IMG/VR virus record: IMGVR_UViG_3300045988_110003
Coordinates: 1 to 15,280 of that record
Length of the DNA stretch: 15,280 bases
Strand: one strand, 5' to 3'
Origin: a virus
The position numbers and the translations under genes are program-made. The notes below the pieces were generated by a model. The model ran no database searches, had not been told where the DNA came from, and saw only the letters and a program-made list of their open reading frames with translations. Positions 228 through 15,280 of this stretch are shown one piece after another. How positions within the stretch are numbered: the stretch's first letter is position 1; each line of letters opens with the position of its first letter.

Positions 228-273
228 ATAGACAGTGAAAGGGAACACACCTCAAGAGAAAGGACATACAACA

Positions 274-474
274 ATGAAACTCTATAATGTATACGTTCAT
301 AACAACCGTGATAACTACAATGATTGTTATATGGTGAATGCGGAAGACCCCGTGGATGCACGCAATGTGGCGGTTCAGCGGTTAATTGATGAAACTGGTG
401 ACGGTCTGAACGTGTGGGAGATACTGGGCGTAAAGGGTGTTCTTAGTTCAAAGTATGGCAAGACCAATAATTAA
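274..474 (+). CDS. Hypothetical early protein, 66 aa
   Basis: ATG at 274 is preceded by AAAGGA at 259-264. The tracked GTG start at 235 would sit at the predicted transcription start, so it is unlikely. I recognised no family. Confidence 0.6.
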   Translation: MKLYNVYVHNNRDNYNDCYMVNAEDPVDARNVAVQRLIDETGDGLNVWEILGVKGVLSSKYGKTNN

Positions 475-489
475 CAGGGGGTGCACACA

Positions 490-756
490 ATGAAAACGTT
501 TGTAGTCAGTATGAGACAGATGAAAGAGCTTCAGCAGAAAGGCTGGACAATCGGCAAGTCTTTTGAGTATTACCGTGTGGGTGTTGAAGATGGAACGGGC
601 AAGCTTCTTGTCAAGCGGTATCCGAAACGTTTCTACAATGTGAATCTTCACAAGTATGGTTACTGTCATAGTATGGAAGAAGCTTCACGGCGTGGGATTC
701 TCAGCGACACGCACAAAGTTCGCTTAATGTCAAGTGAGAAAGGACAGAAGCAATGA
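490..756 (+). CDS. Hypothetical early protein, 88 aa
   Basis: ATG at 490 is preceded by AGGGGG at 475-480. The stop overlaps the next start (ATGA at 753-756). Confidence 0.65.
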   Translation: MKTFVVSMRQMKELQQKGWTIGKSFEYYRVGVEDGTGKLLVKRYPKRFYNVNLHKYGYCHSMEEASRRGILSDTHKVRLMSSEKGQKQ

Positions 757-983
757 TTCAATACATTAAATGTAGCAACTTTGAACCCATAGAAAATTAC
801 CTGCTCCGTCACCAAGACAGCGAGTACAAGACAACCAGATACAAATACACCTTTGAAGTGGTGGGCGATTGTGCCGGAATCTTCCGGACGGGCCTTGTCA
901 ATGCAAGTGCAACCGCTTCACATCCGGCAATCAAGAAAGGTGAGCGGGAGTTAATCGTATATTATCATGATGGGGAGTTTTAA
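753..983 (+). CDS. Hypothetical early protein, 76 aa
   Basis: ATG at 753 is preceded by GAAAGGA and is translationally coupled to the upstream ORF. Confidence 0.65.
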   Translation: MIQYIKCSNFEPIENYLLRHQDSEYKTTRYKYTFEVVGDCAGIFRTGLVNASATASHPAIKKGERELIVYYHDGEF

Positions 984-985
984 CA

Positions 986-1225
986 ATGAAAGTTTACATT
1001 TATGAGCACGTCACTTGCGCACCGGAAAAAGCGCACCCGGTGAACCGAATTGAGCATGGTTTTGCTTGGCGTCTTAAAGCAGGATGCAAACAGATGAACA
1101 TGCAAGAACTTGACAAGTATATGAAGTTCATTCGTGTAACCATGTTCAATCCGAATTTGATTCTTCTGCCGGCTGGGGATTTCCGGTTACAATATTTTGA
1201 TATGAGGGGGAAATACCATGATTAA
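986..1225 (+). CDS. Hypothetical early protein, 79 aa
   Basis: ATG at 986 is preceded by GGGGAG and packed tightly against its neighbours. Confidence 0.65.
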   Translation: MKVYIYEHVTCAPEKAHPVNRIEHGFAWRLKAGCKQMNMQELDKYMKFIRVTMFNPNLILLPAGDFRLQYFDMRGKYHD

Positions 1226-1427
1226 ATTAACCGATACCATGCGGAAAAAGCTTGTAGACAGCGGTGTCTACATTGGCGCAAGGCACTATTACACATACGA
1301 TTCACAAACTTGTGTCATTGCAAAGTATGATAAAAAAGGTGAAAAGCTGCAAGAGGTGGGTTCAGAAGATTTGAACCTGTGGGCACTGGTTACAAGTACC
1401 ATCCGGGAGTATAAGGGGAGTAAGTAA
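1218..1427 (+). CDS. Hypothetical early protein, 69 aa
   Basis: ATG at 1218 is preceded by GAGGGGGA and overlaps the upstream ORF by 8 nt. Confidence 0.65.
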   Translation: MIKLTDTMRKKLVDSGVYIGARHYYTYDSQTCVIAKYDKKGEKLQEVGSEDLNLWALVTSTIREYKGSK

Positions 1428-1428
1428 C

Positions 1429-2196
1429 ATGAAGAAACTGAAAAACCAAACCGGTCTTGTCCAGTCCGATGAAAACGCCAAGGCCCGGGCCCGGAAAGAA
1501 TCGGGCAAGACGTCCAACAAAAAAGCAGCCAAGCAGCGCAAGCAGCAAAAGCTCGCTGAAAAGAAAGAACAGAAGAAGCGGAAACAGGGGGGCCCGGGCC
1601 GTCCGTTCCGTGCCAAGCCTTGGGCGGACTACGCACAAGGCGAAAAACCCGTTAAAGCATACAGCACCGAACAGCTCCGGGACATCAACAGAAGAGCGGC
1701 CAAAGCAGCGAACAGCCGCTTGCGTGCTCTGGAAAAAGCCGGGCAAACCAAGTGGGCCTATAATATGGCCGCTCGCCTTACTGGCAAGGAAAAGCCACGG
1801 TTTACGGAAAGTCAAAAGGCTATTGCCAAGATGTCCCGGCAGCAGCTCGAAAAGCAGTTTTACAATCTCCGGGAGTACATGACAGCCAAAACAAGCACAT
1901 TGCAGGGGTTAAGAGCCCATGAACAAAAGGTGTTGAATATGGCCCGGGAAGAGGGTTTTCAGGGAACTACGGAAGAGCTCTCCGCCCTCTTTGAAAAGTA
2001 CATGACGGCAGAATGGGAAAAGATTCTGGGTTCTCCGCTCATTCGTGGTGAGATTCTTTCCGGTCGTGCTGCACACGGCTCTTTGGAATATCTGAGGGAA
2101 CAGCAAGAGCGGGCCAGCGAGATGGGCCGCTTGTACGATGAAGACAAACAACAGGGCGCTTTACTTCTGGAATCTTTACGAAAGTTTGGGGGTTAA
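1429..2196 (+). CDS. Candidate terminal protein (replication primer), 255 aa
   Basis: It lies immediately upstream of the protein-primed DNA polymerase, as phi29 gene 3 precedes gene 2, and is close in size to phi29 TP (266 aa). The N-terminal ~60 aa are extremely Lys/Arg-rich and the rest looks helical. The ATG is preceded by AAGGGGAG. I saw no direct sequence similarity. Confidence 0.5.
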   Translation: MKKLKNQTGLVQSDENAKARARKESGKTSNKKAAKQRKQQKLAEKKEQKKRKQGGPGRPFRAKPWADYAQGEKPVKAYSTEQLRDINRRAAKAANSRLRALEKAGQTKWAYNMAARLTGKEKPRFTESQKAIAKMSRQQLEKQFYNLREYMTAKTSTLQGLRAHEQKVLNMAREEGFQGTTEELSALFEKYMTAEWEKILGSPLIRGEILSGRAAHGSLEYLREQQERASEMGRLYDEDKQQGALLLESLRKFGG

Positions 2197-2198
2197 GT

Positions 2199-4238
2199 AT
2201 GAGATACTCGCAAGGAATCGAGATAGCAGAAACCAAACAAGAATTTCTTGCGATGCTCAAAAAGCCCAAGGCTGTGGCCCAAAAATCCAAGCGTGCAAAA
2301 GCTGGGCAGCGCCGTTTTGTGCGCAAGTACATGGATGTCACTTGTACTTTTGATATTGAAACCACCAACACGGAAGAGGACGGCTTTGCATACTCGTTTC
2401 AGACCTGTATCGGTGGGGCCGTGGTGGTTCCCCGTTACTTTGAAGACTGGGTGGACATCATTGACACGCTGGTAGACAAGTGGGGCATTACCGAAAAGAA
2501 GCGCCTCATCATCTTTGTGCACAATCTGGGCTATGAATATACCTATCTGATTCAGATGCTTTGTGCACACTGGGGCGACGCCAAAGCCCTGTACACCAAG
2601 AGCCGCAAGCCCTTGTATTTGCAGTTCTCGAACGGAATCGAATTCCGGGATAGTTTAAAGCTTTTCCAAAAGAGTCTTGCCCGGGCAACTGAGGGCTGCA
2701 AGCATGAAAAGTTAAAGGGCGATTTGGATTATACGGTTTATCGGACATCCGACACGCCTTTAACAGATACCGAATTTGCGTATTGTGTGAATGATGTTCT
2801 TGGTCTGTGGGAAGCAATCGAACGCTTAAAGAAAGAGCGTGGTTATAACACGGCCACTTTGCCGCTGACAAATACAGCGCTTGTCGTTGCTGAGGTCAAC
2901 AGCAAGATTTCTCATGACAAAGTATGCCGGGACGCTATACGGCGGCTTGCGTTGTCCAAGAGTCAAACCCTTTTGGCGTATAAGGCAATGGCAGGCGGTG
3001 ACACTCACGGGACAAGATGGCGGGCGGGTCAAACCTATTACAACTGTAACTCGTATGACTTCAAGAGTGCCCACCCGTCACAACAGCTTTTGTGGAAGTT
3101 TCCAAGCGGCAGGCCCTTTGACCTGCCGGACGAAACGGAAGAAGACGACATGAACCGCCTGATTGCTGCCGGGTATGGCTGGGTGGGCAAAATTCTGTTG
3201 ATTGACTTTCAGATAAAGCCGGAATGTCCTGACCCCTGTATTTCGGTCAGTAAGTGTGCAAGCATTGACGGGGAGTTAGGCGTTGACAATGGCCGCTTGC
3301 TGGGTGCCCACGGCGCTTTTATCTACGTTGATTCCAACGACTGGCAAAGAATCCGGGACGGATACCTTTATACAAAGATGATTTGTATGGAATCCTTTGC
3401 TTTTCAGCTGGCCTATTTGCCCGACTCGTTCCGGCTTGCGATTTTGGAAAAATTCAAAATCAAAGAAACCATGAAGAACAGCCCGGATTACGCATTCTCG
3501 AAAATATGTGTAAACACGATTTACGGCGCAACTGCCCAAAAGCAAATCCGTGATGAATACGACGCACAAATAGGAGATGATATTGAATTTGAATGCACCC
3601 ATTGGGAAGATACCCTGCAAGACATGAACGACGACAAAGTTTATAAGAAGCAGTCTGAGAAGTTCCCCTTTCTGTGGGGACTCTGGACAGCCAGCTTAAC
3701 CCGTTTAAAGCTGTGGCAGCTCTTAAAGATTGTCGGCTGGGAATCCGTCATCTACTGGGATACAGACAGTTGCAAGTATCAAGGCCCAAAGATGAAAGGC
3801 GTTCAAGCCTATAATGAATCCGTGGCCCGTCAGTGTGAAAAGCGTGGTGTGGTCGTCAAAAAAGCAAACGGGAAGAAAGTCTTCATCGGGGTTGCGGAAG
3901 ATGAACACCCGCAAGCCGATTTTGGCTATACCGAATTCAGGTTTCTTCACGCCAAATGCTATGCGGCCCGGACGTGTGACGGGGTTCTCGAAAGTACCAT
4001 TGCAGGAGTTGGCAAGAAAGAGGGGAAAGCAGCCCTCAAGAACGATATAGAAAATCTGAACGATTTTCTCATTATTGAAGACGCTGGGGGCCAGATGCTC
4101 ACATATCACAATAGCCCCATCAAAGAACGTCACGACATGAAGAAACCCACTCACAGTGCCTCTTGGGTTGTCATGACTCCAAGGCGCTATGAAGTGGGCC
4201 AGATGACAAAAGATTTTACAGAAGAAAGGCTTGGTTAA
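2199..4238 (+). CDS. Family B DNA polymerase, protein-primed type, 679 aa
   Basis: Motifs found: ExoI FDIETT, ExoII VHNLGYEYTYL, ExoIII YCVNDVLGL, motif A YDFKSAHPSQ, motif B KICVNTIYGATAQK, motif C IYWDTDS, and KxY as HAKCYAAR. Confidence 0.93.
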   Translation: MRYSQGIEIAETKQEFLAMLKKPKAVAQKSKRAKAGQRRFVRKYMDVTCTFDIETTNTEEDGFAYSFQTCIGGAVVVPRYFEDWVDIIDTLVDKWGITEKKRLIIFVHNLGYEYTYLIQMLCAHWGDAKALYTKSRKPLYLQFSNGIEFRDSLKLFQKSLARATEGCKHEKLKGDLDYTVYRTSDTPLTDTEFAYCVNDVLGLWEAIERLKKERGYNTATLPLTNTALVVAEVNSKISHDKVCRDAIRRLALSKSQTLLAYKAMAGGDTHGTRWRAGQTYYNCNSYDFKSAHPSQQLLWKFPSGRPFDLPDETEEDDMNRLIAAGYGWVGKILLIDFQIKPECPDPCISVSKCASIDGELGVDNGRLLGAHGAFIYVDSNDWQRIRDGYLYTKMICMESFAFQLAYLPDSFRLAILEKFKIKETMKNSPDYAFSKICVNTIYGATAQKQIRDEYDAQIGDDIEFECTHWEDTLQDMNDDKVYKKQSEKFPFLWGLWTASLTRLKLWQLLKIVGWESVIYWDTDSCKYQGPKMKGVQAYNESVARQCEKRGVVVKKANGKKVFIGVAEDEHPQADFGYTEFRFLHAKCYAARTCDGVLESTIAGVGKKEGKAALKNDIENLNDFLIIEDAGGQMLTYHNSPIKERHDMKKPTHSASWVVMTPRRYEVGQMTKDFTEERLG

Positions 4239-4239
4239 T

Positions 4240-4320
4240 ATGGACACTGTTATTAAATGTGTAACCGTTGTATTGGTTGTGGATATCGTTCTTGTGATTA
4301 TCCTGTACAAATCCCTGTAA
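4240..4320 (+). CDS. Possible 26-aa hydrophobic micropeptide (MDTVIKCVTVVLVVDIVLVIILYKSL)
   Basis: The ATG lies 1 nt after the polymerase stop, with AAAGG about 10 nt upstream. It has a single predicted TM-like segment. It is below the ORF-track length cut-off and has no other support. Confidence 0.25.
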   Translation: MDTVIKCVTVVLVVDIVLVIILYKSL

Positions 4321-4344
4321 ATGTTCCACGTGGAACAAAAGAAA

Positions 4345-4372
4345 AGCCCCACGGCCTTTCGGTCGTGGGGCT
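4345..4372. terminator. Bidirectional intrinsic terminator between the convergent arms
   Basis: Stem AGCCCCACG (4345-4353) pairs with CGTGGGGCT (4364-4372). It is flanked by an A-run upstream and TTTTT downstream, so it reads as hairpin plus U-tract on both strands. It sits between the polymerase stop (4238) and the fibre stop (4378). Confidence 0.8.
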
Positions 4373-4377
4373 TTTTG

Positions 4378-6285
4378 TTAACTTACGGTAATGATGGCGG
4401 AAAACTGAATAAGCGCCATTTTAGTGAGGTCGATATCTTCCGGTTTGGGGAATGCTCCTCCTTGTGCAAGAAGAGCGTTATAACGTCCCTCGGGAACGCC
4501 AGACTTAAAAACAAGCGAAAGGGGATTCATCTCTGGGTTCGTAATCGTGTTACCATACGAAATCTTATACTCTCCAGCAGTGGTATAATAGGCAATGTGC
4601 CAAAAGGCTTGGCTGATGCTGATTGCGTGCCCGGGTTTTACTCGGAACGGAATAGAAATGTTGTCAAGCTGTAGTTTCGTTGTCGAATTGGGGTTAACAA
4701 TGCCCATGCCGCCCAATGTAATATACTGAGAACGGGGTACGGGGTACACTTCCAGATTAGACACGTCGGGAATCTCGCTCCTGTCCGCCTTGTCCGTTTC
4801 CAGCTTGGCGATCTGCCCGGCGTGTTCTTCCAGCTCGGTTTCCTGGGAGGTCGCACACTGGGAAACGGTCTGACCGGGGTGGTCGGTCGTCCAGTCGCCA
4901 ATAATGGCATCCTGTGCGGCCTGCCCTGCCGTGTAAACTTCCGTCTTGACGTAACCGGACAGGTCTTCCCTCAGATGGGCGATAGCGTCAGTGTTGCCGG
5001 AAATGGCGGTATCCTGGGCCGTGTTCTTGGCCTTGAGGTCGGCAATGTCCTGCTTGTTGGTCGTGTTGTCGGTCTCCAGGGCAGAAATCCGGCCCTCATG
5101 GTCCGCCAACTCGGTTGCATGGTCGGCCAGCTCGGCGGCATTCTTGGCAATGAGCTTGCCCTGTGCCAGTTCCGCCGCCTTTGCCCGGTCAACCTCAGCG
5201 GTCAAAGCGGTATTGGTTGCATCGGTCTTGGTGTCCAGACCGTCAAGACGGCCCTCAGCGGCGGTGGTGCGCTTTTCCAGTGCATCCAACCGCCCATCCT
5301 GCTGCACATCCTTTTCCTGAATGTGGGCGATGGCGTCCCGGTTCGCTTCGATTTTGGCTTCATCTTCGGTGAGGTCGGAACGCAAAGAGGCGATGTCAGA
5401 AGTATTCCGCTCAATCGCCGTGTGATTGTCGGTGATTTCCTTATGCTGGGCGGTGAGCCGGGCTTCGTGGTCTTTCAGCTCTTCGGCATGGTCGGCCAGC
5501 TCATGGGCGTTGACGGCAATCTGGGCGGCATTGTCCTGAATGTTTTTGGTGTTCTTGGCAATGTCTGCGGTGTTCTGGGCCAACGTGGCGTCATGGGATT
5601 TCAGCTTAGTATCAATGCCATTCAGCCGGGAATCCTGCTCCACGTCTTTGGCCTGAATTGCCGAAATGTCGTTGTCGTTGCTGGTAATCTGCCGCTGCAA
5701 ATCCTCATCCTTGGCGTGCAGGTCGGCAATCTCTGTGGTGTGCTGGGCGGTCGTGGCCTGCAAGCCGTCGATTTCCGTCTCAGCGGTTGCAACACGCTCC
5801 GAAAGAGCATCAACCCTTGCGTCGTTCTTGGCAACGGTGTTTTTCATCTCCGCATTGTCTTTGTCGTACTGGGTGATTTTTTCACGGAATTCCTTATTGT
5901 CTTCTGCAAAGCCCGTCACCTGACTGGACAGGTCGGAAACACCGGCTTTGAGCTGTTCCAACTGGGCGTTGTATGCTCCGGTCTTGGCCCAATATCTTTC
6001 ATTGGTGATGTCGATACCGGGGGGCACCGGGCAACGGCTGGTATAGGACTCATTGTTATGGGTCACAATGATAAGGTTTTCATAAGCCTTTGCGCCGTCC
6101 CACTCGCTGGGGTCGGCCAACTTCGGAACGTACCGGGCCCCGATGTACTGAGACGGGGGACAAGGCGGGGGCGGCGGGGGACAATGCCCGGGACGGGGGC
6201 CCGGCTTGCAGGGGCCACACCCACCGGGAGCGTAGGGAGCAGGTTCAACAGGATAAGGGCGGCAATCATGTTTGTTGCAACTCAT
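4378..6285 (-). CDS. Tail fibre / appendage protein, 635 aa
   Basis: The protein has four regions: a Cys/Pro-rich leader (residues 1-45); a YIGARYVP...YTS...YW..TG..N module of a kind I recall at the N-termini of tail fibre proteins in Firmicutes phages; about 400 aa of repetitive coiled coil; and a ~120-aa non-repetitive C-terminal domain. It is the last gene of the structural operon. RBS GAAAGGAGA. Confidence 0.7.
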   Translation of the reverse strand: MSCNKHDCRPYPVEPAPYAPGGCGPCKPGPRPGHCPPPPPPCPPSQYIGARYVPKLADPSEWDGAKAYENLIIVTHNNESYTSRCPVPPGIDITNERYWAKTGAYNAQLEQLKAGVSDLSSQVTGFAEDNKEFREKITQYDKDNAEMKNTVAKNDARVDALSERVATAETEIDGLQATTAQHTTEIADLHAKDEDLQRQITSNDNDISAIQAKDVEQDSRLNGIDTKLKSHDATLAQNTADIAKNTKNIQDNAAQIAVNAHELADHAEELKDHEARLTAQHKEITDNHTAIERNTSDIASLRSDLTEDEAKIEANRDAIAHIQEKDVQQDGRLDALEKRTTAAEGRLDGLDTKTDATNTALTAEVDRAKAAELAQGKLIAKNAAELADHATELADHEGRISALETDNTTNKQDIADLKAKNTAQDTAISGNTDAIAHLREDLSGYVKTEVYTAGQAAQDAIIGDWTTDHPGQTVSQCATSQETELEEHAGQIAKLETDKADRSEIPDVSNLEVYPVPRSQYITLGGMGIVNPNSTTKLQLDNISIPFRVKPGHAISISQAFWHIAYYTTAGEYKISYGNTITNPEMNPLSLVFKSGVPEGRYNALLAQGGAFPKPEDIDLTKMALIQFSAIITVS

Positions 6286-7214: not shown

Positions 7215-8411
7215 TTAGTAAACGTCAAGACAGAATGTGCTACGCCAAGAATCTGCGATGTACCGATAGATGTCAAACTTCACGGTTTCCCGCTCTGCTT
7301 CAATCATCTGCTGGGTCGTGGTGACGCCGATGTTACCGCCTTTGGTGTATTCGTGCACCACTTCCGTGGTAACGTTTTCTTTGCCGGTCTGGGCAGTAAT
7401 ACTGTGTTCATCGTGCTTGCCGGTCTTGGAATCCTGAGCCGTGCCACGGTCGCCAGCCTGCCGTTCCGTGTGCCCGTGGCCGTCCGTGCTGCCGGTATCC
7501 CCGTGGGTTCCGTGGGCCCGGGATGCACTGTCAGAAAGTCCCGTGGTCAGCTGGCTGGTGTCTTCCTTGGTTTCCGTGTCACTGGTACTGGTCTGGTGGT
7601 CGGTCATGTGCTCTGTGGTCACATCGTCTTGGGTGCCGCTGGTGTTTTCGTTCTCTGTCCAATTGGTGTTGCGGGTTTCATCAGCGGTTCCCGTCTCCTT
7701 ATAAATGGTGGTGCTTGCGTCGAACGGCTGATAATTGGCTTCATTCTCTGCTGAAATTTTGCCCTCTACATCAGTTTGGGAGTCCTTGGTGGTCTTGACT
7801 TTATCGGTCATGGTTTCATCGTGGGACGTGAGGCGGGTTCCCGTGGTATCCCGGTCAAGCGTGCCCTTGGTATCCCGGGTGTCGTCCGCTTCGGTCTGAG
7901 TATGAGCAAACCCATGCTTCTTGCCGTCCTGACTGCCCACGGTCTTTTCCGTGGCGGCTCCGGTATCCGTGGTGAATCCATCATCCTTGGTATGCTCATG
8001 ATAAAGGTTGCCGGTGGTTTCCATCTGGTGACGGTCGTCGGAATGCTGGGACTGTTCTTCCGCTCCACCGTTGGAATGCTGGGCGACGTTCTGGGACGTG
8101 TCCCGGGTCACGGATGTCACGTCCCGGCTCCGCTCGCTCATATCGGTATTCCAAATCGGGTTATAGTCCAGTTTGGTCGTAGCAAAGAGCTTTTTCCAGA
8201 TGGGCAAATTCTGACGACTCCACCAGTACATCTCCTGCTTCATCCAATAGGGGTCAGGATGATACAGGGGGGCCAGACCATGAAGACGGCGAATACAGGC
8301 GATTACGCCGCCTTTTTCCACGCCGTCCGGGACAACCATGTTGGAAAACAAATCCCGGTCAACCATCAGCATGGTTTCCAAACAGGTCGAATGCAATTCA
8401 TTCAGAAGCAT
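7215..8411 (-). CDS. Lower collar / tail tube protein candidate (phi29 gp11 position), 398 aa
   Basis: It directly follows the portal gene with a 14-nt overlap. The ATG is preceded by GAGGTGAAGAAAG. The termini look globular and flank about 260 aa of Thr/Asp/Ser/Gly/His-rich polar sequence. Confidence 0.55.
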   Translation of the reverse strand: MLLNELHSTCLETMLMVDRDLFSNMVVPDGVEKGGVIACIRRLHGLAPLYHPDPYWMKQEMYWWSRQNLPIWKKLFATTKLDYNPIWNTDMSERSRDVTSVTRDTSQNVAQHSNGGAEEQSQHSDDRHQMETTGNLYHEHTKDDGFTTDTGAATEKTVGSQDGKKHGFAHTQTEADDTRDTKGTLDRDTTGTRLTSHDETMTDKVKTTKDSQTDVEGKISAENEANYQPFDASTTIYKETGTADETRNTNWTENENTSGTQDDVTTEHMTDHQTSTSDTETKEDTSQLTTGLSDSASRAHGTHGDTGSTDGHGHTERQAGDRGTAQDSKTGKHDEHSITAQTGKENVTTEVVHEYTKGGNIGVTTTQQMIEAERETVKFDIYRYIADSWRSTFCLDVY

Positions 8412-9378
8412 CTTTCTTCACCTCTTTTTCCTCTCTGCTGGGCTGCTGTTCGGATTCATCCGCTTCGCCTGCATCAAAATCCGGTTCAATCATCTTAAAG
8501 GTGATATTGGTTCCGTACATCTCGTTCACGATGTCCAAAGACTTTTCCAGTGTGATTCTCCACACTTCACGACGGTTGAACGTTTCGGCGTCCGCTGCTT
8601 TGGACTCCGTGACAACCATTCTTTCCTTTTTGTTGGGCTGAACACTGACGCCCAATTCCCGGTAAAAATCGCACAAGATGTTGCGGCGGTATTCCATAAG
8701 GTCGGGCAAGATAAAGTTCTTGCTCAAATCCCGGTCAAACTGCACCACCGGGAGCGTCCAGCCGGTTTCCCCTTTTGCGCTGGTCAGCTCTTTTACCATG
8801 TCGGGGTTCATGATGATACCGGGTTGACCGTTTGCAAGCTTCTGGAACAATGCTTCCAAACTCCGCTTCTGTTTGTCGTTTTTTGCCATTGCAGCGTATG
8901 CAAAACGGGCGTTGATTGCGCTTTGCCGGATTGCGATTTCTGCAAGCTGCATCTCTCTTGCGTATTTCGTCACCAAATCCCATGTGCCTTGGTAATCAGG
9001 CGTGAGCTTGATAACCCCGCATTCTTTGCCAATTTCCAGCGGACGGGGGAAATTAAAGAACGTGGTTGAAACCTGCATTCCCCGTGGCTGGAATTGCAGG
9101 CCAAAACCCGTGGGAAAGGCAGGCTGCACGACAAGGCCATAAGTTTTGGAACGAAAAACCGTTGCAAAACCCGTCCGGAACAGCTGGTATAAAAAGGCGT
9201 CATAATCCCACCCAACTTGCCCGGGCCCGGCTTCCGGGAGTCCGTTAAATTCAATCAGACCCCGCAAGCGCTGAAAGAAAGAGCGTTCCCAATACGTCAT
9301 ACTGTCTGTGGAAAAGGTTGCATCGAAATTGCCGCAAAGCGTACCCCCATCGTAATACCCACTATAACACTGATACAT
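8398..9378 (-). CDS. Portal (upper collar/connector) protein, phi29 gp10-like, 326 aa
   Basis: NKKERMVVTESKAAD...LDIVNEMYGTNITFK parallels phi29 gp10 EKKERMVTDEVSSND...CEKINELYGLNVKVK. IEFNGLP parallels FEWENLP. I prefer the start at ATG 9378, which is preceded by GAGGTGA. The alternative upstream ATG at 9441 overlaps the knob gene by 53 nt. Confidence 0.82.
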   Translation of the reverse strand: MYQCYSGYYDGGTLCGNFDATFSTDSMTYWERSFFQRLRGLIEFNGLPEAGPGQVGWDYDAFLYQLFRTGFATVFRSKTYGLVVQPAFPTGFGLQFQPRGMQVSTTFFNFPRPLEIGKECGVIKLTPDYQGTWDLVTKYAREMQLAEIAIRQSAINARFAYAAMAKNDKQKRSLEALFQKLANGQPGIIMNPDMVKELTSAKGETGWTLPVVQFDRDLSKNFILPDLMEYRRNILCDFYRELGVSVQPNKKERMVVTESKAADAETFNRREVWRITLEKSLDIVNEMYGTNITFKMIEPDFDAGEADESEQQPSREEKEVKKDASE

Positions 9379-9388
9379 AAGCTTCACC

Positions 9389-10915
9389 TCATTCAATAAA
9401 TACTCCTGAATCCATTGCGGAATTGATGTAGTCGATTTCATCCGGCTTTGCGTTCAGGGGTTGACAGGAAAAACCCGCTGTTCTGCAATACCCCATTGCA
9501 GGGGTTGCAACCCTCATAACGGGATGTCCATACAAGCCCTGAAAACCGGAATCGTCAATGGGCGGATAATACAGCAGTGTGAGCCGGGCCGTCAGGGGGA
9601 GATAAATCTGACTTGCACCGGACAGCGTGCCCACGCTCTGGGTGATGGGCTGTATTGACTGAGTGACAGCAGATACACCGCCTGCCGCTGCATTGGCTGC
9701 TTGCCCGGAACCAAAAGCGGCCAACTGCCCAAGGCCAGCACCGAAACCCCTTGCAGCAGCCATCACACCACCACCGAATGTCATTGCGCTGCCCACGGCT
9801 GAAACGGCTCCGCTCAACATTTTGCCCGGGTCAAAGTTGGATGTCCCGATACCATAAGGGGCCGAAATGTTGGTACTGCCCGTATAAATGGTATAGTTCC
9901 CCGCATTGACTTTGACCGTCACACCACCGTCAACAAAGGAAAAAGCCGTGATAATCGTTAAGCTGCTCTCGCCGTTGCACTGGTCAACGGGAATTCCAAT
10001 GACTCCGATAAAGGGGAGATAAAGCTGAATTTGGCAGTTCATCCGTTTCCAGTCATCAGCAGGCCAAGGGATGTCAATATTGACAACGTGCACTTTGTTG
10101 CTATTTGCACTGACGATGGGGGCAGAAACTCCGGTGGAAAACTGCCCCAACGTAATATTGCCGCTGCCTGTTCCCACAAGCCCGTCATCCACGGGAATCC
10201 AAATGCACGAACGGATATTGGAAGTTGCGTTTGCACCGAAAACAAGTTTGTTCATAAATTCAGGGAGTGCAATCTTCCAATCAATCATTGCTTTGGTTTC
10301 TGCTGCCCAACTGATGGAAATTGCGTCCAGCAGGCTGGCAAGCTGGGAGCGGCTGAGTGCGTAGGACAGCAGGCCGTCTTTACCAACTGCCGAAAGGACA
10401 TACACGCCAGCAGCGGAAATTGTGCCGGGACAAGTCTCTACTTCGCTGCTGCTGATTGTCGGGTGACGTGCTACCGCCTGCCGGGTATCCTGCAAGCGAT
10501 AGGTTGCACCGCTTGCGTCCTCATTGAAGCCATACAAAATGTATGCCTTGGTTTTCAAGATTTCATCCCGGTACGTTGCCAGCGGGTCAAGCTCTAACGA
10601 AAAAGTCCAGATGTTCGCCGTACCACGGCCACGGACGCCAATGGAAATGTCTTTAATCCAATAAAAAGATGCTGTTTCTTCACACTGGCAGTAATTCCAC
10701 TGGGGGGAAATGTTGATGCTATTCAGTGTGACGAAAATAACAGGATGTTCCATGCTGGTCGTCTGCTTGAAATCACAACGCTCTACATCCGGGAGTTTGG
10801 TGTAGTCAAAGGCTTGGGTGCTGTTCACTCGCTTTTGGACGTTGCCAAAATGGAAAGTATAACCATGCTCCACACTGGGGGCAGGAACAGCGCCGTTAAA
10901 GTCTCCTCTTGCCAT
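9389..10915 (-). CDS. Tail knob protein, phi29 gp9-like, 508 aa
   Basis: It lies between the capsid and portal genes, as in phi29. It has a Gly/Ala-rich hydrophobic segment (residues ~366-432) like the gp9 loop. The C-terminal LYGHPVMRVATP...DEIDYINSAMDSGVFIE parallels gp9 KYGYKINRVKKP...DLQEIRTIFDNGITLW. Confidence 0.75.
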   Translation of the reverse strand: MARGDFNGAVPAPSVEHGYTFHFGNVQKRVNSTQAFDYTKLPDVERCDFKQTTSMEHPVIFVTLNSINISPQWNYCQCEETASFYWIKDISIGVRGRGTANIWTFSLELDPLATYRDEILKTKAYILYGFNEDASGATYRLQDTRQAVARHPTISSSEVETCPGTISAAGVYVLSAVGKDGLLSYALSRSQLASLLDAISISWAAETKAMIDWKIALPEFMNKLVFGANATSNIRSCIWIPVDDGLVGTGSGNITLGQFSTGVSAPIVSANSNKVHVVNIDIPWPADDWKRMNCQIQLYLPFIGVIGIPVDQCNGESSLTIITAFSFVDGGVTVKVNAGNYTIYTGSTNISAPYGIGTSNFDPGKMLSGAVSAVGSAMTFGGGVMAAARGFGAGLGQLAAFGSGQAANAAAGGVSAVTQSIQPITQSVGTLSGASQIYLPLTARLTLLYYPPIDDSGFQGLYGHPVMRVATPAMGYCRTAGFSCQPLNAKPDEIDYINSAMDSGVFIE

Positions 10916-10979: not shown

Positions 10980-12239
10980 TTACGGCTGGGCGTCGTCTGC
11001 CATATAGAAGAGAATGGCGTTTTCGGTCGGGTCCTGAATATAGTTCATCTTCCAATGATGCTCGGTGTTATAATACTCGCCTTTCGTGTTAAAGGGAGTC
11101 GTATAAACACTGTCCATCATGTACACCGTTGCAAGGGCCCGACGGTCATACAGCAGGCCAACCACATAATCGAGTTTGACTTCCGGGCCAGTCTCCTGTA
11201 CTGCCGTATCGACGTTAAACTGAGCCGGGATAACGTCAACGGCTGATTTGTCGTTGATGTTCTGCCAGAAGTTGACGCCCTCGAAATTGCCAAAGGACAG
11301 GTATCCCGGGCCAAAGATAGCAGGGAAAACCCACGCCTTGGCATCGTTGATAAGGGGCTGATACAGGAGCAGTTTCTGTTCACTCTTGGGCGTGTCTCTG
11401 AGCAGGGTCAACGGGTCGCCGTTGTCATCGGTACAGGCGGGAACAAGGTGATACAGGTCGGTGCTCTCTTCCAACAGGGCCGTCTGGGTTTCCAGCAGGG
11501 AAACAAAGAACGAAAGAAACTCCTGCAAATGGGTGGTCAGCAGGTCGTGCGTGGTGTACGCTGTGCCTCTTGCCTTGTTGTACTCCGTGGTGAGGTTGAC
11601 TTTCTGGGCGGCTTTGCCGGTGTTGTACAGCATACCGATAAAGTTCATCACCTGAGCCCTGTTTTCTGCCGTCTTCCATCTTGCCACATCGTTTGCAACT
11701 TCCGTGGTAATGCCTGCCAGAAATGCGGATAGCTCGCTCTCGCTGGTGAATGCGGTCTTGAGCTGGCTTCTGAAAGTCGTGTAAGTCTGGTCAAGAGTGC
11801 TCTGGCCAGTATACCACATTTCCAGCGGATACCGCTTGGAAATCTTGTACATGTCCACGCTCTGGCCGTCTCTCAGGGTGTCGGGGTTCTGCTTGGTGTT
11901 GATGAATTTGGTTTCATCAAACTTGCCAGAAAAGAATGCAATCTTGCGGACGAAAAGGCCCCATTCCTGAGACGTTGCTTCGATGCTGGTAAAGCGGCCA
12001 GAATAGCTTCGGGTGGTGACGATGGTTCTTGCAACCATGTTGTAGAGGGCCTGCAACGTGCCCTCTTTGCTCTGGTTAAGACACATCTGACCAACGTTGA
12101 TAAAGCTGGACGTGTCAACCGCCTGAATAGCGGGGGTTTGGCCCGTTACCTGCTTAACCAACTCATTGGCAATGGTGTAGATGTCCTGCGGGCGGAAAAC
12201 GCTTGCACCTGCCAGCGTCGGAAAGTTCGGATTTGCCAT
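10980..12239 (-). CDS. Major capsid protein, phi29 gp8-like, 419 aa
   Basis: [25 protein letters not shown] parallels gp8 [41 protein letters not shown]...YYNTEHHW parallels VLVDKDWFMVYDNL...YWNYYYHVW. It follows the scaffold candidate. RBS AAAGGAG. Confidence 0.8.
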   Translation of the reverse strand: [419 protein letters not shown]

Positions 12240-12657: not shown

Positions 12658-13056
12658 TCAATAACCACCTTTCCAGCGTGCGTGCCCTGTACGCACGTCT
12701 ACATGCGTGAACGTTTTATAAATGCCGATACCGCCTGAGCTGCCCAAATAGCATTCTGCTATTTCGGCAACCCTTGCAGGTGGTACACCTGCTATGACGA
12801 TATCAGCAGCCTTTCCGACACAATGCTGTGAGTGGGGAGATGCATTCTTGAGCGTTGCGTTGTACTCCGGTGAACGGTATCCGCTGTTAATGTGAACGGG
12901 TTTTCCCGTATAATTCCGGATGTTCTCCAAGAGCCGCAACAACTTTTCATCCACCTTTACAAGGTCGGTGGGGTCGTGTTTGGAATGAAATTCCCTCACT
13001 CGAAAGTGAGGGGACAGCCGTTTTTCGGCTGCGTATTTATAGGAGTAAGTGAGCAT
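12658..13056 (-). CDS. Zn-dependent cell-wall peptidase, Peptidase_M15_3 (M15A, YcbK-like) family, 132 aa; endolysin candidate
   Basis: FRVREF...LLRLLENIRNYTGKPVHINSGYRSPEYN...SQHCVGKAADI...GIGIYKTFTHVDVR carries the SGYR, SxHxxGxAxD and HVD zinc-ligand pattern of this family. Confidence 0.8.
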   Translation of the reverse strand: MLTYSYKYAAEKRLSPHFRVREFHSKHDPTDLVKVDEKLLRLLENIRNYTGKPVHINSGYRSPEYNATLKNASPHSQHCVGKAADIVIAGVPPARVAEIAECYLGSSGGIGIYKTFTHVDVRTGHARWKGGY

Positions 13057-13079
13057 TGTCCCACGTCCTTTCTAACAAA

Positions 13080-13150
13080 GCAGGGGGTGCGCAAAACTGA
13101 AATGCTACCCCGTGGGCTTCCGGCCCATCAGTTTTCTGGGGGCCCCCTGC
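13080..13150 (-). ncRNA. 71-nt structured RNA element at the 5' end of the internal-promoter transcript (leader, attenuator or small RNA)
   Basis: Minus-strand RNA is GCAGGGGG-CCCCCAG-AAAACUGA-UGGGC-CGGAA-GCCCA-CGGGGUAGCAUU-UCAGUUUU-GCGCA-CCCCCUGC followed by UUUGUU. This gives three nested stems of 8, 8 and 5 bp, plus a possible crossing CCCC/GGGG pairing. It starts at the predicted transcription start site. Confidence 0.4.
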
Positions 13151-13156
13151 ACTTAT

Positions 13157-13185
13157 ACTATACTAAAGTTAGTCTTCGATGTCAA
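13157..13185 (-). promoter_or_regulatory. Internal promoter for the structural operon (sigma-A type)
   Basis: On the minus strand: TTGACA (13185-13180), a 17-nt spacer, TATAGT (13162-13157), and an A-rich tract upstream (AAAATCAAAAAATATC). It overlaps the 3' end of the ATPase gene. Confidence 0.65.
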
Positions 13186-14239
13186 GATATTTTTTGATTT
13201 TGAGCAGGGTCGGAATGTCGCTGCACCAAACCTGATTCAGATTCAGCATTGCTTCAAAGAACGGGTGATGCAAACGAAAGGCAGTTTTCCCGGCTTTACT
13301 GTCTTCATACACTTCACGACTGTCATGGTGGGACGTGCACAAGTAGTACCGGTTGCCGTTGTAGCTGTAGCAGTACAGGCCAGCAACAACAAACTCCGGT
13401 TTCATACCTCTCAAGTTCATGGGGTGAACGTTGGACAGGTCGTTATAGGAAAACTTATTTTCCATTGCCATCTGATAGAATTTACTGTCTTTGTTCTTGG
13501 ACATGTGACGCATGAACGCCGTTTGGGCCCGTTTGCTACTGACAACTTCCGACTTAGGCATTGCCAGAAAAACGCCGGAATCTGTCATCATCCATTCTTT
13601 GCCGGTACGTACCATTTTTGAAAGGTCGTCCAGCAATCCCAATTCCACCAAGATGGGCGACGCAATATCAAAGGCATTCGCCAGCAGCCAAATCTTGAGC
13701 GGGGGCTTGCCTTGCAGTTCCCGGTTGCCATTGATGGTAACATAAGCGTTTAAGAGTGCATCGCCCTCAGCCTTGCGCTTGACCACGATTCTTTCCGGAA
13801 TAAATTCATCAAAGACAACCTCTTCAAACTGTGTGCCGTTGAAGCCACGAATATTGGCAATGCTGGGGAGCGTCATTCCAATTCCGTACTTTTCAAGACA
13901 CTCTTTCGGCTTGCCCTCTTCATACTCAAAGCGGCCAATGGTATAAGTCACCTTGCCACTCTTCACAATGTCCGCTTCAAACCCCTCAGACTTGAGCGGA
14001 AGAAAGGGATTCAAATCCGGGTCACTGGTAATGGCGTCAAATTCGGTTGTAGTGCGTCTCAGATACAGGAACCGCTTGCCCTGTTTTAATTCGTGTAAGA
14101 GTGTGCCATAAGTCTTGCCCACTTGACGCTTGCCGATGATGATATTACACCAACAACCTAAAGAAGCGATGGATGGGATATTAACCCACCCACCGCTTTG
14201 GTAAAGGTCAAGCGGGATAACTCTACTCCGCCTGCTCAT
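13169..14239 (-). CDS. DNA packaging (encapsidation) ATPase, phi29 gp16-like, 356 aa
   Basis: Walker A IIIGKRQVGKTY parallels gp16 VIGARGIGKSY. RFLYLRRTTTEF parallels QFIYVRRYKPEL. Walker B VVFDEFIPE parallels IVFDEFIRE. RBS GAGGTGA. Confidence 0.9.
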   Translation of the reverse strand: MSRRSRVIPLDLYQSGGWVNIPSIASLGCWCNIIIGKRQVGKTYGTLLHELKQGKRFLYLRRTTTEFDAITSDPDLNPFLPLKSEGFEADIVKSGKVTYTIGRFEYEEGKPKECLEKYGIGMTLPSIANIRGFNGTQFEEVVFDEFIPERIVVKRKAEGDALLNAYVTINGNRELQGKPPLKIWLLANAFDIASPILVELGLLDDLSKMVRTGKEWMMTDSGVFLAMPKSEVVSSKRAQTAFMRHMSKNKDSKFYQMAMENKFSYNDLSNVHPMNLRGMKPEFVVAGLYCYSYNGNRYYLCTSHHDSREVYEDSKAGKTAFRLHHPFFEAMLNLNQVWCSDIPTLLKIKKYLDIED

Positions 14240-14241
14240 AT

Positions 14242-14583
14242 TTATTTCACCTCATACCGGGTTTTGAAGTCGATTTTAGCGCCCTTGTCCATGCAATGAG
14301 CGCCCACCGTGTCAATAACACGCTGCTGGTCTTCGTCGCTGAGATAAATCCGATACTGGTCATACCACTGGTCATTTTTGCCCTTGGTCTGGGGCATTGC
14401 AATGAACATGCCGTTTTTCCCCTGCACAACTTTCAGGTTCATAAACGTTGCGCCGGAAATGTTCAGGGTGAACACGGCGATATTGTCAGCGATGAGGTGA
14501 GCGGCCTGAATGGTTGCGCCTTTGATGCTGAGATACTGCTTGACGACTTCGGGGGCGGCGTTCTGGTTGTTCTTGTTAAACAT
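14242..14583 (-). CDS. SpoVG-fold nucleic-acid-binding protein, 113 aa
   Basis: FTLNISGATFMNLKVVQGKNGMFIAMPQTKGKNDQWYDQYRIYLSDEDQQRVIDTV parallels B. subtilis SpoVG [55 protein letters not shown]. I prefer the start at ATG 14583, which is preceded by AAAGGTAGGAAG. The tracked ATG at 14601 has no RBS. Confidence 0.7.
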   Translation of the reverse strand: MFNKNNQNAAPEVVKQYLSIKGATIQAAHLIADNIAVFTLNISGATFMNLKVVQGKNGMFIAMPQTKGKNDQWYDQYRIYLSDEDQQRVIDTVGAHCMDKGAKIDFKTRYEVK

Positions 14584-14623
14584 ATTCTTCCTACCTTTCA
14601 TTATTTACGGGTGCTTGTATCGG

Positions 14624-15053: not shown

Positions 15054-15082
15054 ATGATAACACTTGCAAGCCCACCTGTCAA
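15054..15082 (-). promoter_or_regulatory. Right terminal promoter (sigma-A type)
   Basis: On the minus strand: TTGACA (15082-15077, inside the ITR), a 17-nt spacer, and TATCAT (15059-15054) preceded by TG. It mirrors the left promoter. Confidence 0.65.
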
Positions 15083-15280
15083 CACTTTCTTGCAGATTCA
15101 TCAATGAACTTTATCTTGTATACAACAAGCTATGTCGTCCTGGCTATCCCGTAAGGTGCTACTTCATTACAGTGAAGCGCTTTATTTCAGTGAAGCGGTT
15201 TGTTCGCGATAACTAACTGCCACTTCACTCTCATAAAGTAGTTGGGGAATTTGAGGTACTTCACTACAGTGATGTGTATA
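15070..15280 (-). repeat. Right inverted terminal repeat (211 bp)
   Basis: Exact reverse complement of 1-211. Confidence 0.97.

Follow-up and report, generated by a model that had tools for sequence, protein, structure and literature searches.

RESULTS

Location of a structured RNA behind the packaging ATPase gene

The DNA analyzed here, IMG/VR virus record IMGVR_UViG_3300045988_110003 (the whole stretch is referred to as the window), measures 15,280 bp, has a GC content of 50.5%, and represents the complete linear genome of a small phi29-like phage. On its minus strand, the intergenic gap between the gene of a phi29-type packaging ATPase and that of an M15 peptidase contains a sigma-70/sigma-A type promoter followed by a 71-nt structured RNA (Table 1). 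Conserved forms of this RNA occur across hundreds of genomes of gut phages and also in Amedibacillus phage AD70P3, which is in culture; its family comprises roughly 500 or more members. The RNA has the layout of domain I of the packaging or prohead RNA (pRNA) of phi29, element for element, at approximately half the size. An earlier note on this DNA, made from the sequence without database searches, had described the gap as the only sizeable one away from the genome ends. It is the only non-terminal intergenic gap longer than 100 nt, save for the gap at 4239–4377, which holds a convergent terminator.

The −35 hexamer TTGACA overlaps the last codons of the ATPase gene (stop codon at 13171–13169), and the promoter scored 11 of 12 as a sigma-70 match. 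Three such promoters were present in the genome, the other two being located at the genome ends. The transcript is predicted to start at the first base of helix P1 or 1–2 nt before it, at approximately 13151–13150. Among the relatives described below, a promoter scoring at least 10/12 was detected in 35 of 44 lineages, with the −10 element mostly ending 5–7 nt before P1, compared to 10 of 2200 random positions. The position of the promoter is conserved, and P1 therefore appears to begin at the 5′ end of the transcript, as it does in phi29.

Folding of the 71-nt RNA into a three-way junction

Folding of the single sequence was not significant compared to shuffled sequences (z = −1.12). Thus, the structure could not be established from this sequence alone, and it is the comparative data that establish it. 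Counting the pairings PK (CCCC/GGGG) and D as helices gives a three-way junction formed by P1, an arm of PK, bulge and hairpin C, and a second arm consisting of hairpin D. The first arm comprises the 4 bp of PK, an 11-nt bulge on the 5′ side, hairpin C, and 1 nt on the 3′ side. The eight bulge bases that adjoin hairpin C (segment Ba) are paired to eight bases of the D loop (segment Bb). For the window RNA, the minimum free energy (MFE) fold was the junction form; of 25 lineages compared, 18 had a junction form that exceeded the nested one in stability, and RNAalifold predicted the three-way junction unaided from a second family, the relatives of MT836115.

The earlier note had listed the Ba/Bb pairing as the second of three nested stems and had seen no obvious three-way junction. 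The pairing is real, but it is a complementarity between bulge and D loop rather than a nested stem, and the junction is present once CCCC/GGGG and the newly found helix D are taken as helices.

Covariation of the five helices

A search of IMG/VR with the ATPase yielded 140 contigs of approximately 15 kb with 73–82% identity, and the element was located right after the ATPase stop codon in all 80 contigs inspected. Fifty-nine distinct sequences of this close family were aligned with MAFFT, and the pairs were counted. In total, 98.3% of the cells were paired, compared to 82.7% after column shuffles and 39–53% when the partners were slid, and compensatory changes on both sides were observed at 20 of 27 pairs. 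Compensation was found at six of seven pairs of P1 (e.g., GCAGGGG/CCCCUGC to CCCCGGA/UCCGGGG), at four of five pairs of hairpin C, and at six of eight pairs of Ba/Bb, for which 100% of the cells were paired. The crossing helix PK changed from C-G to U-A in 24 sequences, and helix D changed from C-G to G-C in three.

The same helices were formed by other bases in more distant lineages, which are given here by number. PK was AGCCGC/GCGGCU in L208 (the relative with 57% ATPase identity), GUUGC/GCAAC in L212, and UGCGC/GCGCA in L210; D was GGG/CCC in the L209 family, GACC/GGUC in L210, and GAG/CUC in L213, with 3–4 bp in most of the lineages from metagenome-assembled genomes (MAGs). More than 20 different complementary Ba/Bb pairs were observed across lineages, while the loop of hairpin C was kept as CGGAA, CAGAA, or CCGAA down to 26% ATPase identity. 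The second family (MT836115, approximately 31% ATPase identity, 340 relatives in IMG/VR) was aligned independently and supported all helices, with 94.5% of the cells paired compared to 86.1% in shuffles and 25–50% in slid controls.

A shuffle test of the bulge/loop complementarity at each locus, which has low power on such short loops, gave a mean of 4.3 nt compared to 3.3 nt in shuffled sequences, with p ≤ 0.05 at 7 of 56 loci; the argument for this pairing therefore rests on the covariation counts. A padded structural alignment of 48 lineages was left out of the pair counts, since the descriptor used to collect those sequences enforces pairing and the count would have been circular. The data confirm the promoter TTGACA-17-TATAGT, the 71-nt RNA, and its listed stems at the positions given in the earlier note. 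The promoter is conserved in relatives, and the stems, for which that note had proposed a covariation check, covary strongly. The CCCC/GGGG pairing, which it had offered as a possible crossing, is a true helix.

Distribution in phi29-like phages

Distant relatives in GenBank, with ATPase identities of 26–57%, included the human-faecal contigs MT835901, MT836115, MT835998 (L210), and MT836155 and the cultured Amedibacillus phage AD70P3 (OP172639; L212, with the RNA at 5864–5925). The same plan was present in all of them, with entirely different helix sequences. A covariance model built from the close family identified the RNA as its sole significant match in the window (85.7 bits), but it was too sequence-specific and scored distant members at 9–11 bits, at the correct places. 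Because this model missed the distant members, an explicit five-helix descriptor was adopted. The descriptor matched exactly once per genome in six lineages (26–57% ATPase identity), and no match was found in 0.97 Mb of shuffled DNA. An alignment-based ATPase scan yielded 77 further contigs of approximately 12–15 kb that were binned into GTDB MAGs (ATPase identity 23–44%); a search of GTDB genomes with a single ATPase protein found nothing. The descriptor matched 30 of these 77 contigs, in each case on the ATPase strand and 1–222 nt past the ATPase stop codon, and nowhere else. The host names of the MAG bins were too mixed to be trusted. The length of the RNA in relatives ranged from 62 to 81 nt, and that of P1 from 5 to 14 bp.

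Other searches were less informative. A DNA pattern scan of IMG/VR returned mostly chance matches in large contigs, and megablast of the whole window against GenBank phages returned no match. No family of Rfam 15 matched the RNA, whether the whole window (E ≤ 10), the region 13040–13200 alone, or 21 relatives were searched.

Many MAG-binned contigs without a descriptor match carried a second type of RNA at the same place. In this type II variant, P1 and a CCC/GGG helix are combined with a bulge that keeps ACGAAGA and with two hairpins, one of them the CGGAA hairpin and the other having AGCRACR as its conserved loop. It was located just after the ATPase stop codon in L211 (5040–5125), L303, L304, L306, L307, L311, L312, and L325.

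Further variation was observed around the element. In some close relatives (L051, L052, L057, L066–L068, L072, and L076), the RNA was separated from the first late gene by a 40–60-nt insertion with a small hairpin of its own (GUCGCCC...GGGGUG), and the start of that gene differed in some of them. In L214 (MT837693), a larger structured noncoding stretch of approximately 150 nt (5590–5740) follows the ATPase gene behind a promoter, and a clean terminator hairpin (GUCACAA...UUGUGAC UUAUUG) comes after it. This stretch may represent an enlarged relative whose size is closer to that of pRNA. Two cultured non-Bacillus phi29-like phages, Clostridium phage CI130P2 (L380, 9978–10126, minus strand) and Eggerthella phage LE1-1 (L382, 12523–12733), have GC-rich structured gaps of 150–210 nt directly upstream of the ATPase gene, with a promoter, a closing helix, and a U-run in CI130P2; these gaps are at most candidate relatives of the RNA.

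Genome organization

The genome is bounded by perfect inverted terminal repeats of 209 nt (1–209 and 15072–15280). The −35 boxes of the two terminal promoters (199–204 and 15082–15077) lie inside the repeats, and the promoters are mirrored and fire inward from both ends. The left operon on the plus strand (235–4238) ends with the gene of a protein-primed type B DNA polymerase (2199–4238), and the right gene train on the minus strand (15075 down to 4378) carries the genes of the SpoVG-like protein, the ATPase, the M15 peptidase, the capsid protein, and the connector. Between the polymerase operon and the tail gene, at 4295–4407, there is a convergent (bidirectional) terminator hairpin, which accounts for a cluster of sub-threshold Rfam small RNA matches at this position. 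No tRNA or tmRNA was found in the window. A terminator-like hairpin, CCCTCACTTTCGAGTGAGGG followed by AATTTC, was also noted at 12993–13012 (minus strand) within the 5′ part of the M15 peptidase gene, where it is probably coincidental with the coding sequence.

The slot of the SpoVG-like gene is filled by a weak match to the phi29 single-stranded-DNA-binding protein (SSB) in other lineages (L210, 3138–3488; L212, 4495–4869; L213, 4205–4558). The SpoVG-like protein may be the single-stranded-DNA-binding protein of this phage rather than an RNA regulator.

Table 1. The structured RNA, its promoter, and neighbouring genes in the window (RBS, ribosome-binding site)
Feature	Position	Strand	Details
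Sigma-70/sigma-A type promoter	13157–13185	minus	−35 TTGACA 13185–13180; 17-nt spacer; −10 TATAGT 13162–13157
Whole structured RNA, 71 nt	13080–13150	minus	Five helices, three-way junction, bulge/loop pairing; from covariation and descriptor
P1, 5′ strand, GCAGGGGG	13143–13150	minus	Partner 13087–13080; corresponds to pRNA A helix
P1, 3′ strand, CCCCCUGC	13080–13087	minus	Helix 1, covariation
PK, 5′ strand, CCCC	13138–13141	minus	Partner GGGG 13111–13108; corresponds to pRNA C helix
PK, 3′ strand, GGGG	13108–13111	minus	Helix 2, covariation
Ba, AAAACUGA	13128–13135	minus	In the 11-nt 5′-side bulge between PK and hairpin C; complementary to Bb; corresponds to pRNA CE (right-hand) loop
Hairpin C, UGGGC[CGGAA]GCCCA	13113–13127	minus	Loop 13122–13118 conserved as CNGAA; corresponds to pRNA E hairpin
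Hairpin D	13091–13105	minus	Stem GC 13105–13104 with GC 13092–13091; 11-nt loop; corresponds to pRNA D hairpin with left-hand loop
Bb, UCAGUUUU	13093–13100	minus	Inside the hairpin D loop; pairs with Ba 13135–13128
UUUGUU tail	13074–13079	minus	After P1; then RBS at ~13070–13066 and peptidase ATG at 13056
SpoVG-like protein	14242–14601	minus	Just upstream of the ATPase gene
phi29-type packaging ATPase (Podovirus_Gp16)	13169–14239	minus	Directly upstream of the RNA; proposed partner of the RNA; Pfam PF05894 1.5e-10; phrog_2150 1.4e-23
M15 peptidase/endolysin	12658–13056	minus	First gene downstream of the RNA; heads the structural-lysis operon ending at 4378
phi29-type capsid protein	10980–12239	minus	
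phi29-type connector	8398–9441	minus	

DISCUSSION

A candidate packaging RNA

We tentatively read the element as a small discrete structured RNA of the pRNA type, an assignment in which our confidence falls a little short of even. We observe the promoter, the fold with its covariation and distribution, and a topology identical to that of pRNA; from these we infer a discrete species that multimerizes, binds proheads, and acts in packaging. The near-consensus promoter would start the transcript at the first base of P1, and the first 71 nt would fold into the three-way junction. The RNA would then be freed from the late transcript by weak termination at the U-rich tail, by nuclease trimming back to P1, or by RNase P where a tRNA follows, and would bind the portal vertex of proheads. 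The match between bulge and D loop would be the counterpart of the right-hand/left-hand loop complementarity that joins phi29 pRNAs in a ring on the portal, and the RNA would dock the short gp16-type ATPase there for packaging of the protein-primed genome. Put in its full form, which we hold with somewhat less than even confidence, the RNA would be the long-sought pRNA of the non-Bacillus phi29-like phages, a minimal prohead RNA of approximately 62–81 nt, homologous or convergent, that is cut from the late transcript, ringed on the portal, and docks the ATPase.

Several observations speak for a packaging RNA. The phage carries the phi29-like set of terminal repeats, type B polymerase, Podovirus_Gp16 ATPase, connector, and capsid protein, but no canonical pRNA. 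All five helices are backed by compensatory changes in two independent families, and the five-helix fold is kept down to 26% ATPase identity in genomes of 12–15 kb, which implies a specific macromolecular partner. True tRNA genes start 4–7 nt after P1, before the first late RBS, in L219 (5132–5204; 64.8 bits, Rfam) and L313 (2787–2857; 65.2 bits). RNase P processing at these tRNAs would excise the RNA, and attachment to the mRNA is thus not required. The spacing between RNA and RBS varies from 18 to 259 nt across relatives, with insertions tolerated, which argues against translational control. The possibility of a pRNA-like small RNA had been raised in the earlier note as speculative; the layout supports it more strongly than that note thought, through the junction and the bulge/loop complementarity, but similarity to the Rfam pRNA family was not found.

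Other observations weigh against this assignment. The canonical pRNA model (RF00044), which scores 145 bits on phi29 and has a gathering score of 100 bits, had no match at E ≤ 10 in the window, in 13040–13200 alone, or in 21 relatives, and the RNA shares no sequence or covariance-model similarity with that family. The Rfam scan that the earlier note proposed, which included the phi29 pRNA family, returned nothing relevant. The RNA is 71 nt long (62–81 nt in relatives), compared to approximately 117 nt for pRNA domain I and approximately 117–174 nt for pRNA overall, and its P1 has 8 bp, compared to the approximately 25 bp, with bulges needed for gp16 function, of the A helix. The N-terminus of the phi29 connector has a basic RKR-like stretch that binds pRNA; the connector of this phage is without such a stretch, which is weak negative evidence. 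Y-shaped RNAs are also common. Many lineages have no terminator after P1, and without processing the RNA would there be simply the leader at the 5′ end of the late mRNA. The position next to the packaging ATPase gene, which the earlier note pointed out, is only partly general: in L210, the RNA heads the structural operon while the ATPase gene is on the other strand. The bulge/loop complementarity is absent from the type II variant, and ring formation by this pairing is therefore not universal. Finally, PK and D are equal in length (4/4 or 3/3) in most lineages, which fits side-by-side packing with the bulge/loop pairing inside one molecule. The covariation is compatible with pairing in cis or in trans, and the equal lengths hint at cis. 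An 8-bp Ba/Bb helix in cis would have to form with linkers of 3, 0, 3, and 0 nt.

A possible leader of the late operon

The arrangement in L210, the missing terminators, the monomeric side-by-side fold suggested by the equal PK and D lengths, and the lack of loop–loop pairing in type II all favor a different reading, the main rival, which we regard as possible but somewhat less likely than a packaging RNA. The RNA would act in cis as a leader of the late (structural-lysis) operon: at the extreme 5′ end of the mRNA, it would form a compact fold with two pseudoknots, its bulge and loop pairing within the same molecule. Such a leader could protect the 5′ end against 5′-dependent decay (RNase J or RNase Y). 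Another possibility is that, in the manner of put or nut sites, it recruits a factor or alters RNA polymerase cotranscriptionally, which would let the 8.7-kb operon be read through. The RNA is always located at the transcription start site of the promoter that heads the structural operon, L210 included. In the L209 family and L210, the hairpin C region has a perfect complement of 7–9 nt just upstream of the RBS of the first late gene (p of approximately 0.002–0.008 compared to shuffles), which hints at refolding of the leader; no such downstream complement was detected in the window's own family (p > 0.1). The complementary sites are located at approximately 5390–5400 in L209, in L277 and L291, and at approximately 12880–12870 (minus strand) in L210, with changes in step between L291 and L293.

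A simple hairpin would be enough for a 5′ stabilizer, whereas five deeply kept helices imply a specific three-dimensional partner. The tRNA genes between RNA and mRNA in L219 and L313 would sever a leader from its message, the distance to the RBS is highly variable, and the first downstream gene differs by lineage, being a peptidase, a holin-like gene, or a small open reading frame. No internal terminators that would call for antitermination were identified.

Improbable readings: attenuation and ligand-binding or self-cleaving RNAs

One of the two readings in the earlier note was a terminator-like attenuator. P1 and the U-rich tail would end most transcripts early, and an RNA-binding protein of the phage, such as the SpoVG-like one, would then open the way to the late genes. 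We consider this improbable. After the GC-rich P1 comes UUUGUU in the window and UUUUAUAG in many close relatives; in L210, a P1 of 12 bp precedes UUUUUG. A consensus promoter before late genes would call for a delay mechanism. The UUUGUU end, present in the window as the earlier note reported, is nevertheless not conserved across the wider family. No U-run directly follows P1 in approximately one-third of the divergent lineages (e.g., L314, L318, L319, L330, L351, and L353), the RBS of L318 is only 5 nt after P1, and several subgroups of close relatives have a weak tail (GUUCUAAG and UUAUCAUAG). P1 with a U-run was accordingly rejected as a conserved terminator. L210, L212, and L213 keep the RNA without a SpoVG-like gene and have the phi29-SSB-like gene instead, and co-occurrence of SpoVG with the RNA was rejected on this ground. 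No mutually exclusive antiterminator helix was seen, all five helices covary together, and no significant alternative pairing was observed in the window's family. Control of an attenuator by the SpoVG-like protein is thus poorly supported.

A riboswitch aptamer or a self-cleaving ribozyme in the 5′ untranslated region, for example, a nested double pseudoknot like that of hepatitis delta virus (HDV), would match the dense pseudoknotted fold in complexity, and by inspection its strands PK/B/C come in the order of P1/P2/P3 in HDV-like ribozymes, but this reading is very improbable: the isolated region matched no Rfam family at E ≤ 10, all ribozyme and riboswitch models included, the junction nucleotides differ between lineages with only the CNGAA loop kept and thus leave no invariant ligand pocket, the helix and loop sizes are unlike those of HDV-like ribozymes, and no conserved C is present at the HDV catalytic position (J4/2), where the linker reads AUU in the window and is variable among relatives. 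The HDV-like topology was rejected for want of an HDV-type Rfam match and of the conserved catalytic C.

Significance

To our knowledge, pRNA is the only RNA known as an essential part of a viral DNA-packaging motor, and it has become a workhorse of RNA nanotechnology. If the element is a packaging RNA, an RNA part would be an ancestral and general feature of phi29-type packaging motors and not an oddity of Bacillus phages; the minimal architecture of a packaging RNA would be defined, and many new self-assembling three-way-junction modules would be supplied. If it is instead a cis-acting leader, it would still be a new and widespread class of doubly pseudoknotted RNA controlling the late genes of abundant gut phages. 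The cultured carrier, Amedibacillus phage AD70P3, makes the packaging question directly testable.

Comparison with known systems

The HK022 put sites, the lambda nut/boxB sites, and the T4 gene 32 leader resemble the present RNA in that a structured RNA of approximately 70 nt stands at the start of a long phage operon. Its small GC-rich hairpin, in which a purine-rich pentaloop is conserved, is reminiscent of boxB, and with the gene 32 leader it shares a pseudoknot followed by an AU-rich stretch and the RBS. None of these systems is known to have the fold of the present RNA, in which five helices covary and a three-way junction is combined with a pairing of bulge and loop. The present RNA also differs in that no N-like or gp32-like partner protein was identified for it and in that a tRNA gene would sever it from the mRNA in two lineages.

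For nearly 40 years, pRNA has been known only from Bacillus phi29-like phages; recent reviews describe it as unique to them (PMC11476376, PMC5066667), and an Infernal search in 2025 added only further Bacillus-type pRNAs (PMC12670572). A bulk screen of IMG/VR, the collection in which the present RNA family is abundant, reported unnamed candidate RNAs consistently adjoining Podovirus_gp16 genes (Fremin et al. 2023; PMC10690425). In the description given in that report, there are six such candidates, located upstream of gp16 and suggested to be cis-regulatory, with no structure or link to pRNA given; the present RNA is set apart from them by this description only.

Apart from its smaller size and shorter P1, the RNA differs from phi29 pRNA in PK (4 bp compared to approximately 9) and D (2–4 bp compared to 6), in the placement of the junction linkers, and in having no domain II, while its bulge/loop complementarity is longer (4–8 nt compared to 2–4). 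Its gene is located by the ATPase gene at the head of the late operon, compared to the left genome end for pRNA, and frequently lacks a terminator. The U-rich tail is weak and not conserved, the late genes come straight after it, and the element does not correspond to a discrete stable RNA of approximately 120–174 nt with its own terminator. In common with pRNA, it is encoded by a phi29-like phage whose ATPase is of the gp16 type and whose connector is of the phi29 type, and transcription starts at the base of the helix that joins the 5′ and 3′ ends. This end-pairing helix closes a three-way junction, here by covariation, RNAalifold, and the MFE fold. One arm consists of a helix, then a bulge confined to the 5′ side, then a terminal hairpin; the other arm is hairpin D. 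The Rfam consensus line of pRNA reads A, C, a 9-nt 5′ bulge, E, the C 3′ strand contiguous with it, 3 nt, D, and the A 3′ strand; the order here is P1, PK, a 5′ bulge, the hairpin, the contiguous PK 3′ strand, a short linker, D, and P1. The bases AACC, which adjoin E in the bulge of phi29 pRNA, pair with GGUU in the D loop of an adjacent molecule, and the covariation of these loops is a hallmark of the family (PMC5066667, PMC12670572); here, likewise, the bulge bases adjoining the hairpin and the D loop show covarying Watson–Crick complementarity. The RNA is thus outside RF00044 by the model test, yet it shares all testable architectural features of pRNA, and what is new here is a conserved RNA with the pRNA layout at half size, outside the Bacillus phages and outside Rfam.

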